Positions 1 to 64,000 of a stretch of DNA of 64,000 nt are shown here, in pieces. Below the pieces are notes generated by a model. The model saw only the letters and a program-made list of their open reading frames with translations. It searched no databases and had not been told where the DNA came from. Every line of letters begins with the position of its first letter. Within the stretch, counting starts at the first letter, position 1. Source of the DNA: Azolla caroliniana (Eukaryota > Plantae > Polypodiophyta); contig JBHGNT010000113.1 in NCBI GenBank assembly GCA_043228905.1, positions 18,064-82,063 of the forward strand, given 5' to 3'. Both the position numbers and the translations under genes were made by a program.

Positions 1-114
1 CAACAACGTCGCCAATTCAAGGCCGATGACGAGGAAAGAGCTCTAGGCGTCGCCGCCTCCCGCCTACTCCAACAGTGCGATCTTCGCCCTCGTGCTTGTA
101 TTCGTCGCTTCTAA
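1..114 (+). CDS. 3' end of a 2S-albumin-like storage protein gene (copy 0, truncated by window edge)
   Basis: Reads QQRRQFKADDEERALGVAASRLLQQCDLRPRACIRRF* from base 1; TAA at 112-114. Confidence 0.9.
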   Translation, partial: QQRRQFKADDEERALGVAASRLLQQCDLRPRACIRRF

Positions 115-207
115 ATATTACATAAACCTTGTTCAAATTATTCTCGTGGTCTCTCTCTAATTACACCCACACGAACAAGTGCGTCTCCCCAATCGCGCAT
201 TACACCC

Positions 208-270
208 ACACGAACGTAAACACGAGCACCAACGTCCCTCCAACACGAACGTAAACACGACCACCAACGT
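208..270 (+). repeat. Two 28-bp direct repeats (ACACGAACGTAAACACGA[G/C]CACCAACGT), 35-bp period, in every spacer
   Basis: Copies at 208-235 and 243-270 differ at one base; present in each unit. Confidence 0.85.
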
Positions 271-583
271 ATAGAATTTGCCTATAGGGGACCGCAAACC
301 ACCCAAACGGAAAAAAAATATCAAAGCAGAACACCCATACCGCACACGCCACGGCAACGGCTAAGGTCAACTTGTACACGCGGCGAATGTGAACTTGCTT
401 CCACACTTGCCCGATAGGACACTCCTAGTGTGGTAGTCCGGTTAGCTTTCCTTGTCGTCGTCGTTACCAACCCCTCGTCCGAACGAGCGAGTACGGACAC
501 CGGTCTATCTACGTTCATCGATGTAGCACACTCGGGAGCCACCACTCGTCCCGCAGTAGCCTCCGCGTGCTTAGTGTCTCGGC

Positions 584-905
584 ACTAGCGCGTGCTAGTT
601 TAATGTGCACGTGCCCGCACACCCCTACGCGCACGCGCGAGTGCGCACATCTACCTACGTATGTATAAATGTTATGTTGCTCGACAAGCTCTCGCGCGAG
701 GAGGAGGAGGAGTACCCGCCACAGGTTGCGCCCAGATTGTCTGGTGACAATACGACACCTAGGACTAGCCTAGACGTGTGGGAGGGTGGACTAGTTGGTA
801 TGGGTCTTGGGCAAGAGTTGTACGCAGGGACACACACGTTATGGTAATGGGAGTGGTGAGTGACATGCATGTGCTCTGATTGCATGGCCATGTGTATATA
901 TTAAA
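584..905 (+). promoter_or_regulatory. Storage-protein-type promoter (repeated in every unit): G-box, ABRE-like ACGTGT motifs, two RY elements, TATA box
   Basis: CACGTG 608-613; ACGTGT 774-779 and reverse ACACGT 834-839; CATGCATG 864-871; TGCATG 881-886; TATATATTAAA 895-905, about 70 bp upstream of the ATG at 972 (context GCAATGGC). RY plus ABRE/G-box is the established B3 (ABI3/FUS3/LEC2) and bZIP module of seed storage genes. Confidence 0.75.
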
Positions 906-971
906 GGTGGAGGGAGCAATGTCAATACAATCCATTAGGAGACAAGCACCGGGATCATAAGGACAATCGCA

Positions 972-1757
972 ATGGCAAAGCTTACTTCCGTATTCCTCAT
1001 GGCCGTGATCATGCTCGCCGCGTGTACCGCGGCCAATGCTAGGTCTGTAGGGCGGGACCGTGAAGAGGAGCGACGCGATCGACGTCGTGAGGGAGACATT
1101 GACGAAGAGAGGCGCGATCGACGCCGAGAGGGGGAGTGCGATGACGAGAGGCGCGAGCGACGTCGTGAGGGGTTCCTTGAGGAGGGGCGCCGCTACAGAG
1201 ACAACAAGAGAGACTCCGAAGAGGAAAGGGAACGTCGTAGCCGTGGTCGCGATGAGCCACGTGACGAGGAACTGAGGCGAGAGTGCGGTGATTTCATCGA
1301 CAAGCAGATCCGAGAGCTACAAGAGCGCTCCGAAAGAGAGGAAGGTGAACAAGGACGTCGCTCCCCATGGATCGAAAACACTCGATACTCAAGACCCTCG
1401 GAACGGTGCTGCAGGAACGTCGAACGAATCCCCGCCGAAGATCGATGCGATCGCCTACGTGATGCCTTGTATGCTGACGAGGAGGAACGACGCAATGATG
1501 AAGGCCGACGCCATGGCCAACAATCAAGGGAACACCGTAGCTGGGAGGAAGAGGACGAGGAGCGCGAGAGAGATAGCAGCCGTGAGCGACGAGAGGGTGA
1601 CGAACGCCGCCACCGCATGTCTCGACGACAAGAGGACGAACGTCAACAACGTCGCCAATTCAAGGCCGATGACGAGGAAAGAGCTCTAGGCGTCGCCGCC
1701 TCCCGCCTACTCCAACAGTGCGATCTTCGCCCTCGTGCTTGTATTCGTCGCTTCTAA
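972..1757 (+). CDS. 2S-albumin-like Arg/Glu-rich seed/spore storage protein precursor, 261 aa (copy 1)
   Basis: Hydrophobic signal peptide MAKLTSVFLMAVIMLAACTAANA; Cys skeleton ECGDFI...PSERCC...DRC...LLQQC...RAC resembling the prolamin-superfamily 8-Cys motif; very R/E/D-rich; RY-box promoter. Family assignment is by motif recognition, not a search. Confidence 0.85.
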   Translation: MAKLTSVFLMAVIMLAACTAANARSVGRDREEERRDRRREGDIDEERRDRRREGECDDERRERRREGFLEEGRRYRDNKRDSEEERERRSRGRDEPRDEELRRECGDFIDKQIRELQERSEREEGEQGRRSPWIENTRYSRPSERCCRNVERIPAEDRCDRLRDALYADEEERRNDEGRRHGQQSREHRSWEEEDEERERDSSRERREGDERRHRMSRRQEDERQQRRQFKADDEERALGVAASRLLQQCDLRPRACIRRF

Positions 1758-17455: not shown

Positions 17456-18241
17456 ATGGCAAAGCTTACTTCCGTATTCCTCATGGCCGTGATCATGCTC
17501 GCCGCGTGTACCGCGGCCAATGCTAGGTCTGTAGGGCGGGACCGTGAAGAGGAGCGACGCGATCGACGTCGTGAGGGAGACATTGACGAGGAGAGGCGCG
17601 ATCGACGCCGAGAGGGGGAGTGCGATGACGAGAGGCGCGAGCGACGTCGTGAGGGGTTCCTTGAGGAGGGGCGCCGCTACAGAGACAACAAGAGAGACTC
17701 CGAAGAGGAAAGGGAACGTCGTAGCCGTGGTCGCGATGAGCCACGTGACGAGGAACTGAGGCGAGAGTGCGGTGATTTCATCGACAAGCAGATCCGAGAG
17801 CTACAAGAGAGCTCCGAAAGAGAGGAAGGTGAACAAGGACGTCGCTCCCCATGGATCGAAAACACTCGATACTCAAGACCCTCGGAACGGTGCTGCAGGA
17901 ACGTCGAACGAATCCCCGCCGAAGATCGATGCGATCGCCTACGTGATGCCTTGTATGCTGACGAGGAGGAACGACGCAATGATGAAGGCCGACGCCATGG
18001 CCAACAATCAAGGGAACACCGTAGCTGGGAGGAAGAGGACGAGGAGCGCGAGAGAGATAGCAGCCGTGAGCGACGAGAGGGTGACGAACGCCGCCACCGC
18101 ATGTCTCGACGACAAGAGGACGAACGTCAACAACGTCGCCAATTCAAGGCCGATGACGAGGAAAGAGCTCTAGGCGTCGCCGCCTCCCGCCTACTCCAAC
18201 AGTGCGATCTTCGCCCTCGTGCTTGTATTCGTCGCTTCTAA
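17456..18241 (+). CDS. 2S-albumin-like storage protein (copy 11, R119S)
   Basis: Intact 261-aa ORF; LQESSE instead of LQERSE. Confidence 0.85.
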   Translation: MAKLTSVFLMAVIMLAACTAANARSVGRDREEERRDRRREGDIDEERRDRRREGECDDERRERRREGFLEEGRRYRDNKRDSEEERERRSRGRDEPRDEELRRECGDFIDKQIRELQESSEREEGEQGRRSPWIENTRYSRPSERCCRNVERIPAEDRCDRLRDALYADEEERRNDEGRRHGQQSREHRSWEEEDEERERDSSRERREGDERRHRMSRRQEDERQQRRQFKADDEERALGVAASRLLQQCDLRPRACIRRF

Positions 18242-19104
18242 ATAGTACATAAACCTTGTTCAAATTATTCTCGTGGTCTCTCTCTAATTTCTCGTAAGTG
18301 TTTACGAACAAGTGCGTCTCCCCAATCGCGCATTACACCCACACGAACGTAAACACGAGCACCAACGTCCCTCCAACACGAACGTAAACACGACCACCAA
18401 CGTATAGAATTTGCCTATAGGGGACCGCAAACCACCCAAACGGAAAAAAAATATCAAAGCAGAACACCCATACCGCACACGCCACGGCAACGGCTAAGGT
18501 CAACTTGTACACGCGGCGAATGTGAACTTGCTTCCACACTTGCCCGATAGGACACTCCTAGTGTGGTAGTCCGGTTAGCTTTCCTTGTCGTCGTCGTTAC
18601 CAACCCCTCGTCCGAACGAGCGAGTACGGACACCGGTCTATCTACGTTCATCGATGTAGCACACTCGGGAGCCACCACTCGTCCCGCAGTAGCCTCCGCG
18701 TGCTTAGTGTCTCGGCACTAGCGCGTGCTAGTTTAATGTGCACGTGCCCGCACACCCCTACGCGCACGCGCGAGTGCGCACATCTACCTACGTATGTATA
18801 AATGTTATGTTGCTCGACAAGCTCTCGCGCGAGGAGGAGGAGGAGTACCCGCCACAGGTTGCGCCCAGATTGTCTGGTGACAATACGACACCTAGGACTA
18901 GCCTAGACGTGTGGGAGGGTGGACTAGTTGGTATGGGTCTTGGGCAAGAGTTGTACGCAGGGACACACACGTTATGGTAATGGGAGTGGTGAGTGACATG
19001 CATGTGCTCTGATTGCATGGCCATGTGTATATATTAAAGGTGGAGGGAGCAATGTCAATACAATCCATTAGGAGACAAGCACCGGGATCATAAGGACAAT
19101 CGCA

Positions 19105-19890
19105 ATGGCAAAGCTTACTTCCGTATTCCTCATGGCCGTGATCATGCTCGCCGCGTGTACCGCGGCCAATGCTAGGTCTGTAGGGCGGGACCGTGAAGAG
19201 GAGCGACGCGATCGACGTCGTGAGGGAGACATTGACGAGGAGAGGCGCGATCGACGCCGAGAGGGGGAGTGCGATGACGAGAGGCGCGAGCGACGTCGTG
19301 AGGGGTTCCTTGAGGAGGGGCGCCGCTACAGAGACAACAAGAGAGACTCCGAAGAGGAAAGGGAACGTCGTAGCCGTGGTCGCGATGAGCCACGTGACGA
19401 GGAACTGAGGCGAGAGTGCGGTGATTTCATCGACAAGCAGATCCGAGAGCTACAAGAGCGCTCCGAAAGAGAGGAAGGTGAACAAGGACGTCGCTCCCCA
19501 TGGATCGAAAACACTCGATACTCAAGACCCTCGGAACGGTGCTGCAGGAACGTCGAACGAATCCCCGCCGAAGATCGATGCGATCGCCTACGTGATGCCT
19601 TGTATGCTGACGAGGAGGAACGACGCAATGATGAAGGCCGACGCCATGGCCAACAATCAAGGGAACACCGTAGCTGGGAGGAAGAGGACGAGGAGCGCGA
19701 GAGAGATAGCAGCCGTGAGCGACGAGAGGGTGACGAACGCCGCCACCGCATGTCTCGACGACAAGAGGACGAACGTCAACAACGTCGCCAATTCAAGGCC
19801 GATGACGAGGAAAGAGCTCTAGGCGTCGCCGCCTCCCGCCTACTCCAACAGTGCGATCTTCGCCCTCGTGCTTGTATTCGTCGCTTCTAA
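19105..19890 (+). CDS. 2S-albumin-like storage protein (copy 12)
   Basis: Intact 261-aa ORF, consensus protein. Confidence 0.85.
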   Translation: MAKLTSVFLMAVIMLAACTAANARSVGRDREEERRDRRREGDIDEERRDRRREGECDDERRERRREGFLEEGRRYRDNKRDSEEERERRSRGRDEPRDEELRRECGDFIDKQIRELQERSEREEGEQGRRSPWIENTRYSRPSERCCRNVERIPAEDRCDRLRDALYADEEERRNDEGRRHGQQSREHRSWEEEDEERERDSSRERREGDERRHRMSRRQEDERQQRRQFKADDEERALGVAASRLLQQCDLRPRACIRRF

Positions 19891-20753
19891 ATAGTACATA
19901 AACCTTGTTCAAATTATTCTCGTGGTCTCTCTCTAATTTCTCGTAAGTGTTTACGAACAAGTGCGTCTCCCCAATCGCGCATTACACCCACACGAACGTA
20001 AACACGAGCACCAACGTCCCTCCAACACGAACGTAAACACGACCACCAACGTATAGAATTTGCCTATAGGGGACCGCAAACCACCCAAACGGAAAAAAAA
20101 TATCAAAGCAGAACACCCATACCGCACACGCCACGGCAACGGCTAAGGTCAACTTGTACACGCGGCGAATGTGAACTTGCTTCCACACTTGCCCGATAGG
20201 ACACTCCTAGTGTGGTAGTCCGGTTAGCTTTCCTTGTCGTCGTCGTTACCAACCCCTCGTCCGAACGAGCGAGTACGGACACCGGTCTATCTACGTTCAT
20301 CGATGTAGCACACTCGGGAGCCACCACTCGTCCCGCAGTAGCCTCCGCGTGCTTAGTGTCTCGGCACTAGCGCGTGCTAGTTTAATGTGCACGTGCCCGC
20401 ACACCCCTACGCGCACGCGCGAGTGCGCACATCTACCTACGTATGTATAAATGTTATGTTGCTCGACAAGCTCTCGCGCGAGGAGGAGGAGGAGTACCCG
20501 CCACAGGTTGCGCCCAGATTGTCTGGTGACAATACGACACCTAGGACTAGCCTAGACGTGTGGGAGGGTGGACTAGTTGGTATGGGTCTTGGGCAAGAGT
20601 TGTACGCAGGGACACACACGTTATGGTAATGGGAGTGGTGAGTGACATGCATGTGCTCTGATTGCATGGCCATGTGTATATATTAAAGGTGGAGGGAGCA
20701 ATGTCAATACAATCCATTAGGAGACAAGCACCGGGATCATAAGGACAATCGCA

Positions 20754-21539
20754 ATGGCAAAGCTTACTTCCGTATTCCTCATGGCCGTGATCATGCTCGC
20801 CGCGTGTACCGCGGCCAATGCTAGGTCTGTAGGGCGGGACCGTGAAGAGGAGCGACGCGATCGACGTCGTGAGGGAGACATTGACGAGGAGAGGCGCGAT
20901 CGACGCCGAGAGGGGGAGTGCGATGACGAGAGGCGCGAGCGACGTCGTGAGGGGTTCCTTGAGGAGGGGCGCCGCTACAGAGACAACAAGAGAGACTCCG
21001 AAGAGGAAAGGGAACGTCGTAGCCGTGGTCGCGATGAGCCACGTGACGAGGAACTGAGGCGAGAGTGCGGTGATTTCATCGACAAGCAGATCCGAGAGCT
21101 ACAAGAGAGCTCCGAAAGAGAGGAAGGTGAACAAGGACGTCGCTCCCCATGGATCGAAAACACTCGATACTCAAGACCCTCGGAACGGTGCTGCAGGAAC
21201 GTCGAACGAATCCCCGCCGAAGATCGATGCGATCGCCTACGTGATGCCTTGTATGCTGACGAGGAGGAACGACGCAATGATGAAGGCCGACGCCATGGCC
21301 AACAATCAAGGGAACACCGTAGCTGGGAGGAAGAGGACGAGGAGCGCGAGAGAGATAGCAGCCGTGAGCGACGAGAGGGTGACGAACGCCGCCACCGCAT
21401 GTCTCGACGACAAGAGGACGAACGTCAACAACGTCGCCAATTCAAGGCCGATGACGAGGAAAGAGCTCTAGGCGTCGCCGCCTCCCGCCTACTCCAACAG
21501 TGCGATCTTCGCCCTCGTGCTTGTATTCGTCGCTTCTAA
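20754..21539 (+). CDS. 2S-albumin-like storage protein (copy 13, R119S)
   Basis: Intact 261-aa ORF; shares R119S with copy 11. Confidence 0.85.
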   Translation: MAKLTSVFLMAVIMLAACTAANARSVGRDREEERRDRRREGDIDEERRDRRREGECDDERRERRREGFLEEGRRYRDNKRDSEEERERRSRGRDEPRDEELRRECGDFIDKQIRELQESSEREEGEQGRRSPWIENTRYSRPSERCCRNVERIPAEDRCDRLRDALYADEEERRNDEGRRHGQQSREHRSWEEEDEERERDSSRERREGDERRHRMSRRQEDERQQRRQFKADDEERALGVAASRLLQQCDLRPRACIRRF

Positions 21540-22402
21540 ATAGTACATAAACCTTGTTCAAATTATTCTCGTGGTCTCTCTCTAATTTCTCGTAAGTGTT
21601 TACGAACAAGTGCGTCTCCCCAATCGCGCATTACACCCACACGAACGTAAACACGAGCACCAACGTCCCTCCAACACGAACGTAAACACGACCACCAACG
21701 TATAGAATTTGCCTATAGGGGACCGCAAACCACCCAAACGGAAAAAAAATATCAAAGCAGAACACCCATACCGCACACGCCACGGCAACGGCTAAGGTCA
21801 ACTTGTACACGCGGCGAATGTGAACTTGCTTCCACACTTGCCCGATAGGACACTCCTAGTGTGGTAGTCCGGTTAGCTTTCCTTGTCGTCGTCGTTACCA
21901 ACCCCTCGTCCGAACGAGCGAGTACGGACACCGGTCTATCTACGTTCATCGATGTAGCACACTCGGGAGCCACCACTCGTCCCGCAGTAGCCTCCGCGTG
22001 CTTAGTGTCTCGGCACTAGCGCGTGCTAGTTTAATGTGCACGTGCCCGCACACCCCTACGCGCACGCGCGAGTGCGCACATCTACCTACGTATGTATAAA
22101 TGTTATGTTGCTCGACAAGCTCTCGCGCGAGGAGGAGGAGGAGTACCCGCCACAGGTTGCGCCCAGATTGTCTGGTGACAATACGACACCTAGGACTAGC
22201 CTAGACGTGTGGGAGGGTGGACTAGTTGGTATGGGTCTTGGGCAAGAGTTGTACGCAGGGACACACACGTTATGGTAATGGGAGTGGTGAGTGACATGCA
22301 TGTGCTCTGATTGCATGGCCATGTGTATATATTAAAGGTGGAGGGAGCAATGTCAATACAATCCATTAGGAGACAAGCACCGGGATCATAAGGACAATCG
22401 CA

Positions 22403-43796: not shown

Positions 43797-44582
43797 ATGG
43801 CAAAGCTTACTTCCGTATTCCTCATGGCCGTGATCATGCTCGCCGCGTGTACCGCGGCCAATGCTAGGTCTGTAGGGCGGGACCGTGAAGAGGAGCGATG
43901 CGATCGACGTCGTGAGGGAGACATTGACGAGGAGAGGCGCGATCGACGCCGAGAGGGGGAGTGCGATGACGAGAGGCGCGAGCGACGTCGTGAGGGGTTC
44001 CTTGAGGAGGGGCGCCGCTACAGAGACAACAAGAGAGACTCCGAAGAGGAAAGGGAACGTCGTAGCCGTGGTCGCGATGAGCCACGTGACGAGGAACTGA
44101 GGCGAGAGTGCAGTGATTTCATCGACAAGCAGATCCGAGAGCTACAAGAGCGCTCCGAAAGAGAGGAAGGTGAACAAGGACGTCGCTCCCCATGGATCGA
44201 AAACACTCGATACTCAAGACCCTCGGAACGGTGCTGCAGGAACGTCGAACGAATCCCCGCCGAAGATCGATGCGATCGCCTACGTGATGCCTTGTATGCT
44301 GACGAGGAGGAACGACGCAATGATGAAGGCCGACGCCATGGCCAACAATCAAGGGAACACCGTAGCTGGGAGGAAGAGGACGAGGAGCGCGAGAGAGATA
44401 GCAGCCGTGAGCGACGAGAGGGTGACGAACGCCGCCACCGCATGTCTCGACGACAAGAGGACGAACGTCAACAACGTCGCCAATTCAAGGCCGATGACGA
44501 GGAAAGAGCTCTAGGCGTCGCCGCCTCCCGCCTACTCCAATAGTGCGATCTTCGCCCTCGTGCTTGTATTCGTCGCTTCTAA
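43797..44582 (+). pseudogene. 2S-albumin-like gene copy 27 with late nonsense mutation Q249* (248-aa product)
   Basis: CAG>TAG at 44541-44543 removes C250 and C257; also R35C and G106S. Could still be translated as a truncated protein. Confidence 0.75.
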
Positions 44583-45439
44583 ATAGTACATAAACCTTGT
44601 TCAAATTATTCTCGTGGTCTCTCTCTAATTACACCCACACGAACAAGTGCGTCTCCCCAATCGCGCATTACACCCACACGAACGTAAACACGAGCACCAA
44701 CGTCCCTCCAACACGAACGTAAACACGACCACCAACGTATAGAATTTGCCTATAGGGGACCGCAAACCACCCAAACGGAAAAAAAATATCAAAGCAGAAC
44801 ACCCATACCGCACACGCCACGGCAACGGCTAAGGTCAACTTGTACACGCGGCGAATGTGAACTTGCTTCCACACTTGCCCGATAGGACACTCCTAGTGTG
44901 GTAGTCCGGTTAGCTTTCCTTGTCGTCGTCGTTACCAACCCCTCGTCCGAACGAGCGAGTACGGACACCGGTCTATCTACGTTCATCGATGTAGCACACT
45001 CGGGAGCCACCACTCGTCCCGCAGTAGCCTCCGCGTGCTTAGTGTCTCGGCACTAGCGCGTGCTAGTTTAATGTGCACGTGCCCGCACACCCCTACGCGC
45101 ACGCGCGAGTGCGCACATCTACCTACGTATGTATAAATGTTATGTTGCTCGACAAGCTCTCGCGCGAGGAGGAGGAGGAGTACCCGCCACAGGTTGCGCC
45201 CAGATTGTCTGGTGACAATACGACACCTAGGACTAGCCTAGACGTGTGGGAGGGTGGACTAGTTGGTATGGGTCTTGGGCAAGAGTTGTACGCAGGGACA
45301 CACACGTTATGGTAATGGGAGTGGTGAGTGACATGCATGTGCTCTGATTGCATGGCCATGTGTATATATTAAAGGTGGAGGGAGCAATGTCAATACAATC
45401 CATTAGGAGACAAGCACCGGGATCATAAGGACAATCGCA

Positions 45440-49517: not shown

Positions 49518-50677
49518 ATAGTACATAAACCTTGTTCAAATTATTCTCGTGGTCTCTCTCTAATTTCTCGTAAGTGTTTACGAACAAGTGCGTCTCCCCA
49601 ATCGCGCATTACACCCACACGAACGTAAACACGAGCACCAACGTCCCTCCAACACGAACGTAAACACGACCACCAACGTATAGAATTTGCCTATAGGGGA
49701 CCGCAAACCACCCAAACGGAAAAAAAATATCAAAGCAGAACACCCATACCGCACACGGCACGGCAACGGCTAAGGTCAACTTGTACACGCGGCGAATGTG
49801 AACTTGCTTCCACACTTGCCCGATAGGACACTCCTAGTGTGGTAGTCCGGTTAGCTTTCCTTGTCGTCGTCGTTACCAACCCCTCGTCCGAACGAGCGAG
49901 TACGGACACCGGTCTATCTACGTTCATCGATGTAGCACACTCGGGAGCCACCACTCGTCCCGCAGTAGCCTCCGCGTGCTTAGTGTCTCGGCACTAGCGC
50001 GTGCTAGTTTAATGTGCACGTGCCCGCACACCCCTACGCGCACGCGCGAGTGCGCACATCTACCTACGTATGTATAAATGTTATGTTGCTCGACAAGCTC
50101 TCGCGCGAGGAGGAGGAGGAGTACCCGCCACAGGTTGCGCCCAGATTGTCTGGTGACAATACGACACCTAGGACTAGCCTAGACGTGTGGGAGGGTGGAC
50201 TAGTTGGTATGGGTCTTGGGCAAGAGTTGTACGCAGGGACACACACGTTATGGTAATGGGAGTGGTGAGTGACATGCATGTGCTCTGATTGCATGGCCAT
50301 GTGTATATATTAAAGGTGGAGGGAGCAATGTCAATACAATCCATTAGGAGACAAGCACCGGGATCATAAGGACAATCGCAATGGCAAAGCTTACTTCCGT
50401 ATTCCTCATGGCCGTGATCATGCTCGCCGCGTGTACCGCGGCCAATGCTAGGTCTGTAGGGCGGGACCGTGAAGAGGAGCGACGCGATCGACGTCGTGAG
50501 GGAGACATTGACGAGGAGAGGCGCGACCGACGCCGAGAGGGGGAGTGCGATGACGAGAGGCGCGAGCGACGTCGTGAGGGGTTCCTTGAGGAGGGGCGCC
50601 GCTACAGAGACAACAAGAGAGACTCCGAAGAGGAAAGGGAACGTCGTAGCCGTGGTCGCGATGAGCCACGTGACGAG

Positions 50678-51132
50678 TATTATAGATCATAGTACTAATG
50701 TAAGCTTAAGATAAGGATAATGAAAAGATAGATAGAAAGGAGAAAGAGAAAGAAGGGTGCCGATCCACCCGACCACCCCCGAGCGAAGGGATCGAGACGG
50801 ACTCGAGCCTCGATCGGCGTCCCATACCACCGCCGTGGCGTCGAGTCGTACCTGGTGCTGGCGCGCTCGCTACAAGAGTTGACCCACCACACGAGCAGAG
50901 TCTCGATGTAGTCAAAAGATCCTCAAATGAGGGTAGCTAGGCCTCTTATTTATAGCGATACCCAAGGCCCCCAGGCAAGTTCACACTTGACCTAATGGGT
51001 TGTCTCAATCCCGAGGATTAAAAGTAATCCTCCCCTTCTTTACACTCTCATTTAACCCTCACAGTTATCCACGTGTATAGAATACTACGGTAAATTCTTA
51101 CCACGGGATATTATATGGTCATGCCCGTAACA
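50678..51132 (-). repeat. 3' LTR (455 bp)
   Basis: Direct repeat of 57240-57694; on the minus strand begins TGTTACGGG and ends CTATAATA. Confidence 0.95.
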
Positions 51133-54100
51133 TACTCCCCCTCTTTAAAACATTGCACTCTTGCAATGGAAAGTTAGGGAAGTTAGTTCTAAGTGTATTT
51201 TCGCGTTCCCATGTGGCATCTTTTATTGATTTATCCATCCATTTTATTTTGAATTCTCGTATTTCTTTAGTACGTAATTTTTTTGTTTTAACATCGAGAA
51301 TTCTTTCTGGTACATGTGGTTTAGAAGATAATTCTTCAGAAGTAACCAGAGTTTTAGTCGTAACTGTATTGTCGCCAGAACCTAGAAGTTCTTTTAGACG
51401 ACTCACGTGAAAGACTGGATGAATTCCGACACCATCGGGAAGAGCAAGACGATAGGCTGATGACCCAATGCGTTTGAGGACTGTAAAAGGTCCACAAAAC
51501 CGTGGGGCTAACTTAGCGCACTTACCCGTAGACAATGTCTTAGAATTGTGAGGTACACGTAAAAATACCTTCTGTCCAGGGTTGAATACACGAGGTTGCC
51601 TATGATGATCGGCATAAAAACGCGCTCTATCTTGAGCTGTTTTTATATTATCTCGTGCAATATGCAACATATCTTGCATATCCCGAAGAAAGTTTTGCGT
51701 ACTTCGCAACTCATCATGATGTATAGTAACATCAATCGGGGCTCGTGGCTGAAAACCATACATCAACATAAAAGGACTATATCCCGTCGACGTATGCTTG
51801 GAGCTGTTATAAGCAAACTCCAAAATTGGGAGATAACGTTCCCATTTTGTTGGTTTTGCACCAACGTATGCTCGAAGCATGTCCTCAATAATTTGATTTA
51901 CTCGTTCTGTCTGTCCATCGGATTGAGGATGATCCGTGGAGCTCATGCTCAACTTAGTTTCTAACTTCTTAAAGACTTGTGTCCAGAAGTCACTAGTAAA
52001 CTTTGGATCTCGATCACTCACGATATCCATCGGTAACCCATAAAAACGAAACAATTCGTCAACGAATTGGTAAGCCAATTCAGGAGCTGTTACCGTGGTT
52101 TTAGTAGCAATAAATCTGGCCATTTTAGTTAGTCGATCAACGACAACCCAGATGGCATCATGACCTTTTTGGGTGCGAGGAAGGCTAACAATAAAATCCA
52201 TGGATATACTTTCCCACTTATTATTGGGAATGTCCAAGGGATGTAAAAGTCCTGCGGCTTTAAGTCGCTCGGCTTTGTTAACCTGACACTGGTGACATTT
52301 AGTCACATAGCTATGTATGTCAGGACGCATCTTAGGCCAATAAAATTGAGTGGAGATAAGAACGAGTGTACGATGTATTCCAGGGTGCCCTGCGGAGGGT
52401 GCATCATGGCATTCAAAAAGAATCCTCTTTTTGACCTCGGGTAAATCTGGAACACAAACCTTCCCATTACGGTAGAGCAAACCGTTAGCAATGTGGAAGT
52501 ATTCCTTCGAGGATGTGGTGGTGTCTGTTCCAGACTCAACTCTTGCCCAGTATTTTGCGAAATAACTGTCATCAGGATACTTTCCTCGAAGGTGATCATA
52601 AAGATCTGATGATATTTCAGTGAAGCTAAGCATGTTAACTTCACGGATGCGACTTAGTGCATCAGCGACAGTGTTCATGGAACCTTTACGATATCGTATG
52701 GAAAAATCAAAGTCCTGGATGAGATCAGCCCATCGTGCCTTACGACCTTTCAGGTCTTGTTGGTCACAAAAATATTTCAAGGACTCGTGGTCCGTAGTTA
52801 CCACAAAGTGATTTCCATAAAGATAATGGCGCCATGTTTTGAGCGCATGTATAACTGCAAATAATTCCTTTTCTTGAACGGTATACCGACATTGAGCAGA
52901 ATCAAGTTTCTTACTCTCGAATGCTATTGGTTTACCATCTTGATACAAGACAGCACCTATAGCATAATCGCTTGCATCGGTTTCAACCTCAAAAGGTTTT
53001 GAAGGATCGGGTAAAAGAAGTGAAGGAGCCTTGCAAACTAGGTCCTTGAGTTCCTTAAATGCAAGGTCTAGTGTAGCATTCCACACAATAGGTTTTGTAG
53101 ACTTACGCGTTTGACCTTTTAAAAGATCAGTAAACGGTGTCGTCAATTGGGAGTAATTACGAAGAGACTTTCGCAAAAACCCCACAAAACCAAGGAATGA
53201 TCGAACTTCTCGAATATTCCGAAGAGTGGGCCAAAGCTTGATTTTCTCAATGCGAGAAGGATCAATTTCAACTCCTCGTTCGGTTATGAGATGTCCTAGA
53301 TAAGTAATTGATTTCTTGAAGAACTCACATTTTGAGATCTTCGCATAAAACTGTTTGTCACGCAATGTTTGTAAAACAAAGCGGACATGTCTAGCATGTT
53401 CTTGTAATGTACGGCTATAAACTAAAATATCATCCAAGAAAATAACGACAAATTTTCCAAGTTGTTCTCGGAAAATGTCATTCATTTCTTGTTGAAAAGT
53501 AGCCGGAGCATTGGTCAAACCAAAAGGCATAACCAAAAACTCGTAATGGCCATAGCGCGTACGAAATGCCGTTTTAGGAACATCGTCCTCACTTATTCGT
53601 ATTTGATGGTAGCCAGTACGGAGATCAAGTTTCGTAAAATACCGAGCTCCCTGGAGACGGTCAATTAGATCGTCAGCCCGGGGCAATGGATACGAATTCT
53701 TGATCGTCACTTTATTCAAGCGTCGGTAATTAATACACATACGCCATGTGCCCTCTTTCTTTTTAACCAAGAGAACTGGTGCACCCCATGGAGATTTACT
53801 ATAACGTATATAACCCATTCGTAAATAGTCCTTGAGTTGCTTAGATACCTCATCTTCTTCGGATCGACTTAAGCGATACGGAGGTATACTTATTGGTGCA
53901 ACACCAGGTACAATATCTATACGATGGTCTATATTACGTTTAGGAGGTAACCCATCAGGTAGTTCACTTGGAAAAACATCATGAAAATCATTTAAGATTT
54001 CATCAAGTTGTTGTTGTTCAAAATATGTTAATTGAATCGGGACATTATCGATATTGTAAACGTGAATGTCCGGATCAAGTACACAATAAAATAACGTAGA

Positions 54101-55552
54101 ACAAGACAACTCGGATATTGATGGACACGAGGAAACAATCGAGAGGGATTGTTTTTTTACACATTGAATAAAATGCGTACAATCGTTCAGTACAAAAGAA
54201 ATGGAATGTCGAACCCAATCAATAAATAAAGAAGAGTTTTTATTATAAAACCAGGGATAACCCAGTATTACATCGGTGGTACAAAGATTCATTACATGGA
54301 AGTCTACTTCCTCTATATAAGTATCAATAGAAATTCCTAATGAATGAATCGCCCCGTTGATGTATTGTACTCTTCCATCAGCCAAGTGCACCGTGTAGGT
54401 GTGATCACTTACGGTGGGTTGGATTCCCCATATCTGAACCAAACGATCATTCACAAAATTGTGTGAGCTTCCCGAATCAAATAAAAATTGTACGGGAGAT
54501 CCATTGATATACCCGTTTGCACGTAGTAAATCATTGGGACCCAATACATAGTGAGGGAAAGAACATTGACAATTACTTAAATGATGTGTATAGACCTGAA
54601 GGACATTAGGAATCTGACCTTTATGGTCTGCAGCTTTAGCTTTGTTGTCGTGCTCTTTCCGTTGGAGCTTTCGACATTGATCTTTTGTATGACCCTTCTT
54701 TTTGCAGAATACACAAAAAGGATGTTGTCGCTTACAATCGCGATCCAGGAATTCGTTGGGTGTCTTGCGTTTCCCAACAAATTGCGACTGCTTAGTCCCG
54801 GGCGCTTCGTTGGGTTTGTTATGGTCCTTCTTCGAAGTGCGTTGATAGCGAAGAACTATTTCAACGACCTCTTCGAAGGATTTTGGATCCTTATCGTGCA
54901 CTATCCAGTGATAGTCCGAATTGGGGATGCCATTGACAAAACAAGCTATCAACCAATTGTCCCCTTCTAGACCCGATTTTTGGATTTGGGTTCTAGCATG
55001 GTGAACATAGTCTTCTAGCGAGGAAAATTTCCTGCTAGAGAGGTTCATTAAAGCTTGTGCTGCCTCGGTTCGAGAGGGAGGTTGCAGAAATTGGCCCTTA
55101 AAAACCGTGACAAAATCTGTCCAGGTATCGGGCAATTTCCCCATAGTACGGAGGCCACGCCACCAAGCGGCGGCCTTACCCCCGAGTTCTCGGCCGACAT
55201 ATGCAATCTTCGTACTATCTGGCGTGGGATAGAGCTCAAAATGAGACTCCCATCGTCCAAGCCATGTGCAGATTGCTTCTTCGGTTCTTTCCTTTTTGTC
55301 TCCCGTAAATGGCTTAACGACAAATGATGGTTCACCTTGTCGCTCATCAGGTCTATTAGTCTCACGTTGTAGACTAATGACACGTGCCTCAAGAGCACTC
55401 TGAGATTGCCGAAGTTCGGTCATCTGTTGAGCGGTGAAACTAAGGTATTGGGTTATTTGTGCCAAATACATCTCAGTGGACATTTGTCCAGGAGGATTCC
55501 CTTGAGTTCCTTCCGCTTGAGCGGATGACATCGGGTCGTTAATTTGAGCCAT
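51119..55552 (-). CDS. Gag-Pol polyprotein, 1477 aa (Gag, CCHC knuckle, aspartic protease, RT, RNase H, integrase, chromodomain)
   Basis: [14 protein letters not shown]; [11 protein letters not shown]; [17 protein letters not shown] and FLDDILVYS; [20 protein letters not shown]; [29 protein letters not shown]; GPF; PERILD..FKIKW..DATWE. No stops or frameshifts. Confidence 0.97.
51135..51146 (-). other. Polypurine tract
   Basis: Minus strand AAAGAGGGGGAG, 2 nt before the TG of the 3' LTR. Confidence 0.9.
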
Positions 55553-56730
55553 TAAAGATTATTTCTGGAAAAGAAATAGGATAAGGTCAGAGATATAGTC
55601 ATAACATCTTGTCGTGATGTAAACATATCATGGGCGAGCATTAATCGATATCATTATCTCACGTCAATACCCCTCTAGACGTATGAGATGAGGTTCAAGA
55701 TCAGGTTACTATGGTAACACAAAGGTGTTTTAAAAACCATGGGGGTGACAAATAAATGTCTTTCCCTGATCTCTATATCGATTTTTTCATGGTGGCTCCC
55801 CGAGGCTCAACCATGTATGTTCGCGTCATGAATAGTTTATACACGAAAAAAAATGTTAACAATAAACTATGTTTCGGTGCCCACATATGTGGTTTCGGCT
55901 CTTTAAGTCCTATTACGAGGACCCCGAGGTGCACTTAGACCTTAAGTCTAAACATGTGTTATAGTCATATGTATCAAGGATGTTGTATGGTCTTGGTCAT
56001 ATTTGAACTCGAGACCTCGAGAACAAATACATTAAACACTTGAGCCAACCAAGTAAGTTGCTCTTCTCGAATGTTTAATGTTTGATGCGTATAAGAGATA
56101 TGCGAGGCAATTGATCATATACGTTTTTTTAAAAGAACATATATGTCAAGGGTCCTTATTTCGCCCTCATTTACCAAAACTATGTTGGTACGTTACCTAA
56201 CCTCAAGTCTCGTAATTACGATGGCATACGCCAAAGTGCAACCTATTGGTGAAGCCAAATGAGCCCTCGTTTCGTAGTAGGCTCACGTGGGCCATCACAT
56301 GGTCACGTCATTACGAATGCCTCTCGTAAGAACGAGCTCATGGTGGCATCGTATCCATGTAACGAGGGAAGGATGTTGGATACGTGCGTCATTGGAACGA
56401 CCTCACTTGAAGTGGGTCAAGCCCTACGTACTCAACATCATTATGGCTATTGCGTTTCTTTACGTAACGAAATCGAGGTCATCAACGGGGTTGTCAACAA
56501 TAAAAAATTGTTGAAAAAGGAATGGTGACAACGCCATTCTCACAAAAATGTGAGGACGGCCACCAACATCCTTTTCCCGACCATGACAACTTTCGACATA
56601 ATCACGTAATAACGAATATACACATATGTTTACTTTTCACATATATACGATCAAATACGTATATATGTGACCACATATGCCTATATTAAACATATCGTTA
56701 TATTAAATAGCCACCAATGATGTGATCGAG

Positions 56731-56995
56731 ATACGTAATCGAGGTATATACCTCTACGCACACGAAACATCCACAAATAAGAGATCATCGTAATACGCAA
56801 TGGAGGTATTGACCTCTTACGCATACGAGAGCAAACGCATATCGTTTACAACAAATCAAGGTATTAAACTCATACGCAAACGTAACATATGTTCGTGAAC
56901 GTAATACGTAATTGAGGTATTAACCTCGTACGCATACGACACTCATCACATATTATTAATATGTCAAACGAGGTATTGACCTCGTGCACATATGT
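56731..56995. repeat. Five degenerate palindromic motifs (GAGGT-ATTR-ACCTC type) at 55-62 bp spacing in the retroelement leader
   Basis: Cores at 56741, 56803, 56858, 56914, 56970, mostly followed by TACGCA[T/C/A]ACG. Confidence 0.75.
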
Positions 56996-57227
56996 AAACG
57001 TTTTAGATAATCAATTAAAGACCACTACAACATCATTGATTTAATGAAAAAAATTACATATAAACTAAACACATGATTAGATGGGAGAAGAGAGAATAGA
57101 AAAAAAAATATGGAAAGAGTTACCGAAGTTCTTTGTTGATCGTTGTCTGGATCAAGGCCAACCGCACAATGATCGATCAGCATCAATCAAAAGACAAATG
57201 AAAAACAAAGAAACATTAGTAAAAAAA

Positions 57228-57237
57228 TCTGATACCA
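57228..57237 (-). other. Primer-binding site, initiator tRNA-Met type
   Basis: Minus strand TGGTATCAGA, 2 nt after the 5' LTR; matches the first 10 nt of the usual plant TGGTATCAGAGC. Confidence 0.88.
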
Positions 57238-57239
57238 AA

Positions 57240-57694
57240 TATTATAGATCATAGTACTAATGTAAGCTTAAGATAAGGATAATGAAAAGATAGATAGAAA
57301 GGAGAAAGAGAAAGAAGGGTGCCGATCCACCCGACCACCCCCGAGCGAAGGGATCGAGACGGACTCGAGCCTCGATCGGCGTCCCATACCACCGCCGTGG
57401 CGTCGAGTCGTACCTGGTGCTGGCGCGCTCGCTACAAGAGTTGACCCACCACACGAGCAGAGTCTCGATGTAGTCAAAAGATCCTCAAATGAGGGTAGCT
57501 AGGCCTCTTATTTATAGCGATACCCAAGGCCCCCAGGCAAGTTCACACTTGACCTAATGGGTTGTCTCAATCCCGAGGATTAAAAGTAATCCTCCCCTTC
57601 TTTACACTCTCATTTAACCCTCACAGTTATCCACGTGTATAGAATACTACGGTAAATTCTTACCACGGGATATTATATGGTCATGCCCGTAACA
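57240..57694 (-). repeat. 5' LTR (455 bp) with candidate TATA box
   Basis: No difference from 50678-51132 found by eye; TATAAATA on minus strand at 57516-57509. Confidence 0.95.
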
Positions 57695-59051
57695 ACGAGG
57701 AACTGAGGCGAGAGTGCGGTGATTTCATCGACAAGCAGATCCGAGAGCTACAAGAGCGCTCCGAAAGAGAGGAAGGTGAACAAGGACGTCGCTCCCCATG
57801 GATCGAAAACACTCGATACTCAAGACCCTCGGAACGGTGCTGCAGGAACGTCGAACGAATCCCCGCCGAAGATCGATGCGATCGCCTACGTGATGCCTTG
57901 TATGCTGACGAGGAGGAACGACGCAATGATGAAGGCCGACGCCATGGCCAACAATCAAGGGAACACCGTAGCTGGGAGGAAGAGGACGAGGAGCGCGAGA
58001 GAGATAGCAGCCGTGAGCGACGAGAGGGTGACGAACGCCGCCACCGCATGTCTCGACGACAAGAGGACGAACGTCAACAACGTCGCCAATTCAAGGCCGA
58101 TGACGAGGAAAGAGCTCTAGGCGTCGCCGCCTCCCGCCTACTCCAACAGTGCGATCTTCGCCCTCGTGCTTGTATTCGTCGCTTCTAAATAGTACATAAA
58201 CCTTGTTCAAATTATTCTCGTGGTCTCTCTCTAATTTCTCGTAAGTGTTTACGAACAAGTGCGTCTCCCCAATCGCGCATTACACCCACACGAACGTAAA
58301 CACGAGCACCAACGTCCCTCCAACACGAACGTAAACACGACCACCAACGTATAGAATTTGCCTATAGGGGACCGCAAACCACCCAAACGGAAAAAAAATA
58401 TCAAAGCAGAACACCCATACCGCACACGCCACGGCAACGGCTAAGGTCAACTTGTACACGCGGCGAATGTGAACTTGCTTCCACACTTGCCCGATAGGAC
58501 ACTCCTAGTGTGGTAGTCCGGTTAGCTTTCCTTGTCGTCGTCGTTACCAACCCCTCGTCCGAACGAGCGAGTACGGACACCGGTCTATCTACGTTCATCG
58601 ATGTAGCACACTCGGGAGCCACCACTCGTCCCGCAGTAGCCTCCGCGTGCTTAGTGTCTCGGCACTAGCGCGTGCTAGTTTAATGTGCACGTGCCCGCAC
58701 ACCCCTACGCGCACGCGCGAGTGCGCACATCTACCTACGTATGTATAAATGTTATGTTGCTCGACAAGCTCTCGCGCGAGGAGGAGGAGGAGTACCCGCC
58801 ACAGGTTGCGCCCAGATTGTCTGGTGACAATACGACACCTAGGACTAGCCTAGACGTGTGGGAGGGTGGACTAGTTGGTATGGGTCTTGGGCAAGAGTTG
58901 TACGCAGGGACACACACGTTATGGTAATGGGAGTGGTGAGTGACATGCATGTGCTCTGATTGCATGGCCATGTGTATATATTAAAGGTGGAGGGAGCAAT
59001 GTCAATACAATCCATTAGGAGACAAGCACCGGGATCATAAGGACAATCGCA

Positions 59052-59837: not shown

Positions 59838-60700
59838 ATAGTACATAAACCTTGTTCAAATTATTCTCGTGGTCTCTCTCTAATTTCTCGTAAGTGTTTA
59901 CGAACAAGTGCGTCTCCCCAATCGCGCATTACACCCACACGAACGTAAACACGAGCACCAACGTCCCTCCAACACGAACGTAAACACGACCACCAACGTA
60001 TAGAATTTGCCTATAGGGGACCGCAAACCACCCAAACGGAAAAAAAATATCAAAGCAGAACACCCATACCGCACACGCCACGGCAACGGCTAAGGTCAAC
60101 TTGTACACGCGGCGAATGTGAACTTGCTTCCACACTTGCCCGATAGGACACTCCTAGTGTGGTAGTCCGGTTAGCTTTCCTTGTCGTCGTCGTTACCAAC
60201 CCCTCGTCCGAACGAGCGAGTACGGACACCGGTCTATCTACGTTCATCGATGTAGCACACTCGGGAGCCACCACTCGTCCCGCAGTAGCCTCCGCGTGCT
60301 TAGTGTCTCGGCACTAGCGCGTGCTAGTTTAATGTGCACGTGCCCGCACACCCCTACGCGCACGCGCGAGTGCGCACATCTACCTACGTATGTATAAATG
60401 TTATGTTGCTCGACAAGCTCTCGCGCGAGGAGGAGGAGGAGTACCCGCCACAGGTTGCGCCCAGATTGTCTGGTGACAATACGACACCTAGGACTAGCCT
60501 AGACGTGTGGGAGGGTGGACTAGTTGGTATGGGTCTTGGGCAAGAGTTGTACGCAGGGACACACACGTTATGGTAATGGGAGTGGTGAGTGACATGCATG
60601 TGCTCTGATGGCATGGCCATGTGTATATATTAAAGGTGGAGGGAGCAATGTCAATACAATCCATTAGGAGACAAGCACCGGGATCATAAGGACAATCGCA

Positions 60701-61486
60701 ATGGCAAAGCTTACTTCCGTATTCCTCATGGCCGTGATCATGCTCGCCGCGTGTACCGCGGCCAATGCTAGGTCTGTAGGGCGGGACCGTGAAGAGGAGC
60801 GACGCGATCGACGTCGTGAGGGAGACATTGACGAGGAGAGGCGCGACCGACGCCGAGAGGGGGAGTGCGATGACGAGAGGCGCGAGCGACGTCGTGAGGG
60901 GTTCCTTGAGGAGGGGCGCCGCTACAGAGACAACAAGAGAGACTCCGAAGAGGAAAGGGAACGTCGTAGCCGTGGTCGCGATGAGCCACGTGACGAGGAA
61001 CTGAGGCGAGAGTGCGGTGATTTCATCGACAAGCAGATCCGAGAGCTACAAGAGCGCTCCGAAAGAGAGGAAGGTGAACAAGGACGTCGCTCCCCATGGA
61101 TCGAAAACACTCGATACTCAAGACCCTCGGAACGGTGCTGCAGGAACGTCGAACGAATCCCCGCCGAAGATCGATGCGATCGCCTACGTGATGCCTTGTA
61201 TGCTGACGAGGAGGAACGACGCAATGATGAAGGCCGACGCCATGGCCAACAATCAAGGGAACACCGTAGCTGGGAGGAAGAGGACGAGGAGCGCGAGAGA
61301 GATAGCAGCCGTGAGCGACGAGAGGGTGACGAACGCCGCCACCGCATGTCTCGACGACAAGAGGACGAACGTCAACAACGTCGCCAATTCAAGGCCGATG
61401 ACGAGGAAAGAGCTCTAGGCGTCGCCGCCTCCCGCCTACTCCAACAGTGCGATCTTCGCCCTCGTGCTTGTATTCGTCGCTTCTAA
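60701..61486 (+). CDS. 2S-albumin-like storage protein (copy 33)
   Basis: Intact 261-aa ORF, consensus protein. Confidence 0.85.
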   Translation: MAKLTSVFLMAVIMLAACTAANARSVGRDREEERRDRRREGDIDEERRDRRREGECDDERRERRREGFLEEGRRYRDNKRDSEEERERRSRGRDEPRDEELRRECGDFIDKQIRELQERSEREEGEQGRRSPWIENTRYSRPSERCCRNVERIPAEDRCDRLRDALYADEEERRNDEGRRHGQQSREHRSWEEEDEERERDSSRERREGDERRHRMSRRQEDERQQRRQFKADDEERALGVAASRLLQQCDLRPRACIRRF

Positions 61487-62349
61487 ATAGTACATAAACC
61501 TTGTTCAAATTATTCTCGTGGTCTCTCTCTAATTTCTCGTAAGTGTTTACGAACAAGTGCGTCTCCCCAATCGCGCATTACACCCACACGAACGTAAACA
61601 CGAGCACCAACGTCCCTCCAACACGAACGTAAACACGACCACCAACGTATAGAATTTGCCTATAGGGGACCGCAAACCACCCAAACGGAAAAAAAATATC
61701 AAAGCAGAACACCCATACCGCACACGCCACGGCAACGGCTAAGGTCAACTTGTACACGCGGCGAATGTGAACTTGCTTCCACACTTGCCCGATAGGACAC
61801 TCCTAGTGTGGTAGTCCGGTTAGCTTTCCTTGTCGTCGTCGTTACCAACCCCTCGTCCGAACGAGCGAGTACGGACACCGGTCTATCTACGTTCATCGAT
61901 GTAGCACACTCGGGAGCCACCACTCGTCCCGCAGTAGCCTCCGCGTGCTTAGTGTCTCGGCACTAGCGCGTGCTAGTTTAATGTGCACGTGCCCGCACAC
62001 CCCTACGCGCACGCGCGAGTGCGCACATCTACCTACGTATGTATAAATGTTATGTTGCTCGACAAGCTCTCGCGCGAGGAGGAGGAGGAGTACCCGCCAC
62101 AGGTTGCGCCCAGATTGTCTGGTGACAATACGACACCTAGGACTAGCCTAGACGTGTGGGAGGGTGGACTAGTTGGTATGGGTCTTGGGCAAGAGTTGTA
62201 CGCAGGGACACACACGTTATGGTAATGGGAGTGGTGAGTGACATGCATGTGCTCTGATTGCATGGCCATGTGTATATATTAAAGGTGGAGGGAGCAATGT
62301 CAATACAATCCATTAGGAGACAAGCACCGGGATCATAAGGACAATCGCA

Positions 62350-63135
62350 ATGGCAAAGCTTACTTCCGTATTCCTCATGGCCGTGATCATGCTCGCCGCG
62401 TGTACCGCGGCCAATGCTAGGTCTGTAGGGCGGGACCGTGAAGAGGAGCGACGCGATCGACGTCGTGAGGGAGACATTGACGAGGAGAGGCGCGACCGAC
62501 GCCGAGAGGGGGAGTGCGATGACGAGAGGCGCGAGCGACGTCGTGAGGGGTTCCTTGAGGAGGGGCGCCGCTACAGAGACAACAAGAGAGACTCCGAAGA
62601 GGAAAGGGAACGTCGTAGCCGTGGTCGCGATGAGCCACGTGACGAGGAACTGAGGCGAGAGTGCGGTGATTTCATCGACAAGCAGATCCGAGAGCTACAA
62701 GAGCGCTCCGAAAGAGAGGAAGGTGAACAAGGACGTCGCTCCCCATGGATCGAAAACACTCGATACTCAAGACCCTCGGAACGGTGCTGCAGGAACGTCG
62801 AACGAATCCCCGCCGAAGATCGATGCGATCGCCTACGTGATGCCTTGTATGCTGACGAGGAGGAACGACGCAATGATGAAGGCCGACGCCATGGCCAACA
62901 ATCAAGGGAACACCGTAGCTGGGAGGAAGAGGACGAGGAGCGCGAGAGAGATAGCAGCCGTGAGCGACGAGAGGGTGACGAACGCCGCCACCGCATGTCT
63001 CGACGACAAGAGGACGAACGTCAACAACGTCGCCAATTCAAGGCCGATGACGAGGAAAGAGCTCTAGGCGTCGCCGCCTCCCGCCTACTCCAACAGTGCG
63101 ATCTTCGCCCTCGTGCTTGTATTCGTCGCTTCTAA
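62350..63135 (+). CDS. 2S-albumin-like storage protein (copy 34)
   Basis: Intact 261-aa ORF, consensus protein. Confidence 0.85.
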   Translation: MAKLTSVFLMAVIMLAACTAANARSVGRDREEERRDRRREGDIDEERRDRRREGECDDERRERRREGFLEEGRRYRDNKRDSEEERERRSRGRDEPRDEELRRECGDFIDKQIRELQERSEREEGEQGRRSPWIENTRYSRPSERCCRNVERIPAEDRCDRLRDALYADEEERRNDEGRRHGQQSREHRSWEEEDEERERDSSRERREGDERRHRMSRRQEDERQQRRQFKADDEERALGVAASRLLQQCDLRPRACIRRF

Positions 63136-64000
63136 ATAGTACATAAACCTTGTTCAAATTATTCTCGTGGTCTCTCTCTAATTTCTCGTAAGTGTTTACG
63201 AACAAGTGCGTCTCCCCAATCGCGCATTACACCCACACGAACGTAAACACGAGCACCAACGTCCCTCCAACACGAACGTAAACACGACCACCAACGTATA
63301 GAATTTGCCTATAGGGGACCGCAAACCACCCAAACGGAAAAAAAATATCAAAGCAGAACACCCATACCGCACACGCCACGGCAACGGCTAAGGTCAACTT
63401 GTACACGCGGCGAATGTGAACTTGCTTCCACACTTGCCCGATAGGACACTCCTAGTGTGGTAGTCCGGTTAGCTTTCCTTGTCGTCGTCGTTACCAACCC
63501 CTCGTCCGAACGAGCGAGTACGGACACCGGTCTATCTACGTTCATCGATGTAGCACACTCGGGAGCCACCACTCGTCCCGCAGTAGCCTCCGCGTGCTTA
63601 GTGTCTCGGCACTAGCGCGTGCTAGTTTAATGTGCACGTGCCCGCACACCCCTACGCGCACGCGCGAGTGCGCACATCTACCTACGTATGTATAAATGTT
63701 ATGTTGCTCGACAAGCTCTCGCGCGAGGAGGAGGAGGAGTACCCGCCACAGGTTGCGCCCAGATTGTCTGGTGACAATACGACACCTAGGACTAGCCTAG
63801 ACGTGTGGGAGGGTGGACTAGTTGGTATGGGTCTTGGGCAAGAGTTGTACGCAGGGACACACACGTTATGGTAATGGGAGTGGTGAGTGACATGCATGTG
63901 CTCTGATTGCATGGCCATGTGTATATATTAAAGGTGGAGGGAGCAATGTCAATACAATCCATTAGGAGACAAGCACCGGGATCATAAGGACAATCGCAAT

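Follow-up and report, generated by a model that had tools for sequence, protein, structure and literature searches.

A 64,000-nt stretch of the Azolla caroliniana genome (assembly GCA_043228905.1, contig JBHGNT010000113.1, forward-strand positions 18,064 to 82,063; this whole stretch is called the window below and is numbered from its first letter) is occupied by a head-to-tail array of a 1,643–1,649-bp unit on the + strand (1..64000), which extends past both window edges. Each unit carries one intronless protein-coding gene. We consider it probable that this is a long-lived array resembling those of ribosomal DNA (rDNA), homogenised within arrays, that likely raises the dosage of a secreted, nitrogen-rich, 2S-albumin-like reserve protein for spore or seed maturation.

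Organization of the array

The unit consists of a 786-bp coding sequence (CDS) and an 857–863-bp spacer. Word spacing in the window peaks at 1,649 and 1,643 bp. With the ATG as anchor, 34 units can be delimited between 972 and 63998, all of them on the + strand; the − strand has none anywhere in the window. The period is 1,649 bp for 23 units, 1,643 bp for 10 and 1,648 bp for one. The CDS of unit 1 (972..1757, + strand) encodes 261 a.a., and this reading frame is intact in 30 of the 34 units (all except units 17, 20, 27 and 31). At the left edge (1..971, + strand) there is a partial unit with the final 114 nt of a CDS (stop codon at 112–114) and a complete spacer of the 1,643-bp type; at the right edge, unit 34 (62350..63998, + strand) is intact and is followed by an ATG starting at 63999, of which the window holds the first two letters. 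The initial annotation of the window had counted 34 whole copies plus two edge partials, with 30 copies intact, and our unit-by-unit anchoring agrees.

All-against-all comparison of the units, which that annotation had put forward as a check, gives a mean pairwise identity of 99.54% across the 34 units (minimum 98.85%, gaps counted), with 25 distinct unit sequences among them. Nucleotide diversity, excluding one spacer indel block and frameshift columns, is 0.0013 in non-coding and 0.0020 in coding sequence. The earlier statement that spacers are as conserved as the CDS is therefore correct inside the array; between arrays it does not hold (see below).

Concerted evolution within arrays and differences between them

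Most single-nucleotide polymorphisms (SNPs) in the window are private to a single unit. Units that carry the same SNP are found 4.1 units apart, compared with 10.7 by chance (eight carrier sets, P = 0.0005), and units 11 and 12 are an identical copy of units 13 and 14, i.e. a two-unit duplication (17456..24051, + strand). Unequal exchange or local conversion would leave such clustering of shared SNPs and such a repeat; we infer the mechanism from this pattern, and homogenisation by unequal exchange together with gene conversion is likely.

The unit was also found in public sequencing runs (X numbers) and at four metagenome-assembly loci (L001–L004), which allows a comparison between arrays. 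Relative to the window, the unit in run X1 has 10 substitutions, all of them in the spacer and each present in none of the 34 window units; its coding part is identical to the window. The L001 unit differs by eight substitutions, again all in the spacer and in none of the window units. The SNP sites inside the window are distributed differently (18 coding and 16 non-coding; Fisher P = 0.003 against X1 and 0.007 against L001, the two counting together as one test since they have seven substitutions in common). Among the 18 coding SNPs in the array, five are synonymous, compared with 24% of sites expected without selection (P = 0.78). Because SNPs within the array are unskewed and substitutions between arrays are confined to the spacer, it appears that single copies mutate freely while variants of whole arrays avoid the CDS.

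The array undergoes concerted evolution, and it has the features of rDNA-type loci: head-to-tail units of fixed period, variants shared between neighbours, variants fixed in an array and a spacer that diverges faster than the coding part. The initial annotation had left the choice between very recent amplification and ongoing concerted evolution: sharing among neighbours and fixed differences between arrays bear out the latter, and very recent amplification as the origin is disfavoured by a spacer junction common to a unit type at a synonymous divergence (dS) of 0.15 (see below).

The two main unit lengths differ by one spacer change: in the 1,643-bp form (10 of the 34 units), a 16-nt copy of a stretch ∼38 nt downstream takes the place of 22 spacer nucleotides (1801–1816 and the equivalent site in the other units), likely through a local template switch. 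L001, L002 and L003 have the 1,649-type sequence at this site, so the 1,643-bp form is likely derived; it is likely spreading in patches (units 16–18, 22–24, 26–27 and 29).

Diverged unit types and the age of the array

Two of the outside loci hold more diverged units. Against the window, L002 has a dS of 0.15 and a ratio of non-synonymous to synonymous divergence (dN/dS) of 0.22 (P = 2e-6), and L003 has a dS of 0.18 and a dN/dS of 0.13 (P = 2e-10); dN between unit types is 0.02–0.03. Judged from these ratios, the unit types are under purifying selection. Spacer identity between types is 62–72% in a four-way alignment and 80–85% of aligned columns in pairwise comparison, with many indels (the four-way alignment misplaces the middle of L003, and pairwise tests supplement it). 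When the window spacer was divided into nine pieces of at most 100 bp, all nine matched the L002 spacer colinearly, from the stop codon to the next start, and eight of them scored above the best of 100 shuffles; seven of the nine matched in L003. The junction between the 3' flank of one gene and the promoter of the next is thus colinear, and hence inherited, in L002, which makes the tandem state older than the split of the window and L002 types. On this evidence the array is long-lived, and not the product of a one-off recent burst.

Several homogenised unit types can coexist in one sample. For example, L003-like letters occur in runs X15 and X17 alongside the window type; the coexisting types may sit in paralogous arrays or stem from the genomes combined in a hybrid. 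A further family member, ∼84% identical to the window (at 24071–24348 in X17 and X14, and at 50514–50605 in X1 and X15), has a depth similar to or above that of the window type, which suggests another amplified array. The CDS itself contains internal repeats, of 39 nt near the start and of 30 nt or shorter in the insert near the C-terminus (24136–24252 in the window, 1–175 in L002 and 820–950 in L003); their number varies by unit type, giving proteins of 256–295 a.a.

Representation in other sequence data

The unit, or part of it, is present in 20 of the 24 public runs listed. Contig-level comparison covered eight of the 24, and the small-share run X20 was left aside. In runs X1 and X3 a single contig circularises over one unit (1,679 bp at depth 702.6 and 1,681 bp at depth 36.1, respectively), and a contig of run X17 (depth 579.9) connects the 3' end of a unit to the following spacer. 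Three of the four metagenome-assembly loci each consist of one unit in circular permutation (periods of 1,640, 1,730 and 1,857 bp), and the assembler coverages in their contig names are 657, 596 and 441. The depth of unit contigs is 4,337–5,595 in X14 (8.5–21 for low-depth related contigs) and 580 in X17 (2–4.7 for low-depth related contigs); unit contigs are ∼120 to 1,000 times deeper than their low-depth relatives in the same runs, although contig depth is not copy number. From these depths, the genome would likely hold hundreds of copies (35 are seen here).

These data bear on whether one or a few genes could have been multiplied by the assembler, one of the two outcomes that the initial annotation had named as fatal to its reading. 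Near-identity of the units is what such an artefact would produce, but the window holds 25 distinct units, its SNPs are clustered by position, a transposon is inserted with a target duplication, and CG sites account for 10 of the 15 C>T/G>A changes (P = 0.011), as expected of real mutations in methylated DNA. The outside runs and three outside assemblies collapse to one deep, circular unit; for this reason the array is real and not an assembly expansion, and we regard an artefact as next to impossible. Because short-read assemblies collapse the locus to one contig of 1.7–2.1 kb, similar arrays have possibly been overlooked elsewhere.

Two further observations concern the outside samples. At window position 23410, about half of the depth in X14 has another letter (2,103 of 4,223), and position 23399 is changed completely; from the split depth at 23410, this sample holds two array haplotypes. 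In L004 (1–1317; from the same assembly as L003), the 3' portion of a unit and ∼400 bp of spacer give way at ∼600 to unrelated, AT-rich sequence; the contig may be chimeric or mark the end of an array.

The encoded protein

The 261-a.a. protein is 26% arginine and 55% arginine, glutamate and aspartate together, and nitrogen makes up 21.9% of its mass (proteins are typically ∼16% nitrogen). It has a hydrophobic N-terminus, followed by repeats rich in Arg, Glu and Asp that flank a small cysteine core. Mean hydropathy is +2.1 over residues 5–21 and −2.3 over the remainder, so residues ∼1–24 are likely a signal peptide. The full protein scores 21.7 bits against the Pfam prolamin-superfamily domain PF00234, exactly at the cut-off of 21.7, and residues 96–261 alone score 23.2. 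The Atlas clusters among the matches listed are all plant prolamin-superfamily proteins (four out of four; the nearest are globulin-1, 2S albumin and hordein), and all six PDB matches at E < 10 belong to the same superfamily, with amylase/trypsin inhibitors as the best.

Six cysteines are conserved across unit types (105, 146, 147, 159, 250 and 257). The position of the CxC element reads D157-R-C159, the first cysteine of the 2S albumin motif is absent, and Cys56 is a tyrosine in L002 and L003. With the connectivity of napin, the two absent cysteines would bond to each other, so that three disulfides would remain. Because the protein lacks the complete eight-cysteine motif that defines 2S albumins (PMC4366206; here and below, PMC numbers refer to the available excerpts of the papers), we class it on sequence as 2S-albumin-like, not as a canonical 2S albumin. 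The storage albumin of the initial annotation is likely by family, composition and promoter, with the reservation that six of eight motif cysteines are present and that the fold models were uninformative.

Homologue searches yielded few relatives. One search found one match among 7,119 candidates (proteins of 143–457 a.a.) and two in 1.84 billion representatives; with residues 98–168 as the query, none of 45 candidates (in the same length range) matched. One relative, P0001 (190 a.a.), is 56% identical across the first 100 residues and its later part resembles a shifted frame; it is likely a dispersed or broken paralog. Pfam matches to Conotoxin and PFF1_TM fall short of the cut-off and cover the N-terminus; we rejected them. 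We also rejected a hidden RNA gene or a transposon as the basis of the unit: there were no Rfam matches at E ≤ 1 in two units (window 900–4300), no tRNA genes were present in the 64,000-nt window, and the unit has neither transposon ends nor long inverted repeats.

Promoter motifs and transcription

Three motifs precede the gene (all on the + strand; positions are for unit 1): a TATA box at −77 (895..905), kept in all four unit types; an RY element, CATGCATG, at −108 (864..871), conserved in all four types and accompanied by a second TGCATG at −91; and a G-box, CACGTG, at −364 (608..613), where ATGTGCACGT is kept in the window, L001, L002 and L003. RY and G-box-like sites mark ABI3 targets, a regulation that reaches ferns (PMC3458547), and LAFL genes are active in fern sporangia during maturation (PMC5379062); the same motifs also drive late embryogenesis abundant (LEA) genes (PMC3458547).

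There is a weak hint of transcription. By eye, contig ends in run X19 (guessed to be RNA, labelled organism C) agree with L002 over 28 and 30 letters, and the contig with the 28-nt match leaves L002 31 nt downstream of the TATA box, at the place expected for the 5' end of a transcript, although contigs cannot establish a start. From the spacing of the motifs and this hint, the transcription start is predicted near 929. No RNA run was listed among those with the unit, run X23 (also guessed to be RNA, with the organism label of the best-matching runs) had no matching contigs, and the X19 contigs did not reach across the spacer; we did not count these blanks as evidence.

Broken units and an inserted retrotransposon

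Four units have lost the frame, all on the + strand: unit 17 (27344..28986) has a premature stop at codon 50, unit 20 (32279..33926) a 1-bp deletion that causes a frameshift near codon 224, unit 27 (43797..45439) a premature stop at codon 249, and unit 31 (50381..59051) a CDS broken near codon 99 by a long terminal repeat (LTR) retrotransposon. The initial annotation was right about the head-to-tail layout but did not mention this insertion, and the array is not uninterrupted. The element is a 7,017-bp, chromodomain-bearing member of Ty3/Gypsy on the − strand (50678..57694), with identical LTRs of 455 bp each (50678–51132 and 57240–57694), a 5-bp target duplication and an open 1,479-a.a. gag-pol frame with a terminal chromodomain. 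With its identical LTRs and open frame, the element looks very recently inserted. Its termini are TG...TA instead of the usual TG...CA, with an ordinary purine tract at 51133–51146, and the primer site resembles that for initiator tRNA-Met. The family is abundant in the sequencing runs examined; no contig bridging the junction of element and CDS in other samples was among the matches listed.

Interpretation and alternative explanations

Taken as an rDNA-like array, the locus would work as follows. Unequal exchange would hold a short, self-contained unit (promoter, CDS and 3' end) at high copy number, and would spread or remove variants locally. Each copy would be nearly invisible to selection, so that mutations and transposon insertions could arise freely, redundancy masking single broken copies (4 of 34). 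Selection would act once a variant occupies a large share of the array, and only protein-sparing variants would sweep it entirely; the CDS and promoter motifs would stay constant while the spacer drifts. At maturation, ABI3/LEC2-type (B3) and bZIP-type factors would switch on many copies through the RY and G-box-like sites, and the precursor would pass into the endoplasmic reticulum, undergo cleavage into chains joined by disulfides and accumulate in vacuoles as a nitrogen store rich in Arg. The steps of exchange, redundancy and selection rest on the comparisons above; activation, vacuolar location, the gene-dosage function and the expression in seed or spore are what we infer here. A bolder version is tentative, and we think it somewhat more likely wrong than right: that several arrays, each homogenised on its own and holding hundreds of copies (0.3–1 Mb), supply the main reserve protein of the lineage, have been kept head-to-tail through 15–19% silent-site divergence, and are co-activated at spore maturation and unsilenced. 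They would then be the protein-coding equivalent of a nucleolar organiser, and selection would act on whole arrays.

A number of results weigh against this interpretation. For the protein, the eight-cysteine motif C..C../..CC..CxC..C..C is incomplete (six of eight), L003 (19.3) and the partial L002 (19.0) score under the PF00234 cut-off, Atlas scores are 0.82 at most (a lead only) and the cysteine core alone found no match in the Atlas search, PDB E-values are 0.15 or worse, and AlphaFold twice gave no compact fold (predicted template-modelling scores of 0.40 and 0.22; long single helices from shallow alignments, at low confidence). For expression, the X19 hint is one contig from one run, its RNA nature guessed and its organism label different. 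For the history of the array, two of the nine spacer pieces (301–500, ∼200 bp) have no match in L003, so that the shared junction is established for L002 only; X1 and L001, with their shared substitutions, are not independent; fixed synonymous differences number zero where ∼2 are expected at the spacer rate, so that conversion confined to the CDS could contribute; and the L001 CDS has a 15-nt in-frame deletion. Copy number above the 35 seen relies on contig depths, which do not measure it.

The main rival, which we consider unlikely, is a gene-containing satellite that was amplified and homogenised by recombination, with most copies silent, a few supplying the protein and no selection on dosage. 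Chromodomain retrotransposons favour heterochromatin, and one has inserted here; coding variation within the array looks neutral, with 4 of 34 copies broken, and the excess of C>T/G>A changes at CG sites suggests methylation. Against a satellite of mostly silent copies, fixed differences of whole arrays avoid the CDS, dN/dS is 0.13–0.22 between homogenised types, promoter motifs are retained in every unit type, and CpG is undepleted (observed/expected 1.36 in coding sequence and 1.13 in the spacer). Less likely still are repeated recent bursts, in which separate events amplified individual members of a small gene family (by rolling circle or extrachromosomal circles) and homogeneity reflects youth alone. 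Very low diversity, the prevalence of SNPs private to one unit, several unit types in one sample and the ∼200 bp of L003 spacer without homology would all fit, and a two-gene tandem ancestor, if separately amplified, would also account for the shared junction. But separate amplification of single genes is not expected to yield window and L002 spacers that are colinear from the stop to the next start, variants cluster among neighbours, and the unit is without transposon ends or long inverted repeats.

Finally, the array may be as we describe and its product something else: a charged structural, desiccation-protective or antimicrobial prolamin-superfamily protein of the spore wall, mucilage or defence. 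Six instead of eight cysteines, the 55% content of Arg, Glu and Asp, the best PDB matches to amylase/trypsin inhibitors, the presence of RY/G-box motifs also at LEA genes, and a precursor of 261 a.a. (compared with ∼160 for Mo-CBP3; PMC4366206) would suit such a role; 22% nitrogen by mass and a freely varying length of the Arg-rich inserts (256–295 a.a. in total) suit bulk storage, and among Atlas clusters the protein comes nearest to globulin-1, 2S albumin and hordein. We regard a non-reserve product as improbable, and prefer the long-lived array that supplies a reserve protein.

Comparison with known systems

Storage-protein clusters in plants usually comprise a few diverged genes in loose arrangement, plants are known to silence tandem repeats of protein genes, and concerted evolution of short-period arrays is known from rDNA, 5S and animal histone genes. 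Tandem intronless 2S albumin genes are known as well; what seems new is the combination at this scale, which was not found in the literature searched. We found no report of such an array, in a search that left most subscription journals and supplements outside, and a genome paper or its supplement may mention the locus. With neutral variation inside arrays and purifying selection between them, the locus would allow one to gauge how concerted evolution filters mutations in a protein-coding gene, and it offers a synonymous/non-synonymous yardstick that rDNA lacks. It also makes testable whether copy number sets the nitrogen reserve of spore or seed, and how a very high-copy locus of RNA polymerase II (Pol II) escapes silencing.

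Among storage proteins, the closest comparison is with the 2S albumin genes described in PMC4366206, which like the array gene are intronless and in tandem, and encode a signal peptide and an Arg/Glu-rich protein with the CC and C-terminal cysteine pattern of PF00234. The array gene differs in lacking the first cysteine and the first cysteine of CxC, and in its longer precursor with Arg/Glu inserts; its copies number 35 or more, nearly identical and repeated every 1.65 kb, compared with the 'several' genes of that paper's excerpt. 2S albumins do occur in fern spores (PMC4973428). The pea vicilin loci (PMC12621101) are also clustered multigene loci with some non-functional copies, but VicA has three functional genes in 237 kb and VicB five in 184 kb, compared with 34 genes in 57 kb of array here, with homogenised spacers. 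As in the ABI3/RY regulon of seed and fern-spore maturation (PMC3458547, PMC5379062), an RY CATGCA lies near the start and a G-box-like site farther upstream, here as sequence motifs only.

In architecture, the array is most like those of rDNA, 5S and animal histone genes: it shares their fixed short period, homogeneity within the array, type-specific spacers with sub-repeats, conservation of the transcribed part and a minority of units broken by retroelements. It is unlike them in what it repeats, a single gene in a plant that is likely transcribed by Pol II, developmentally regulated and coding for a secreted protein.

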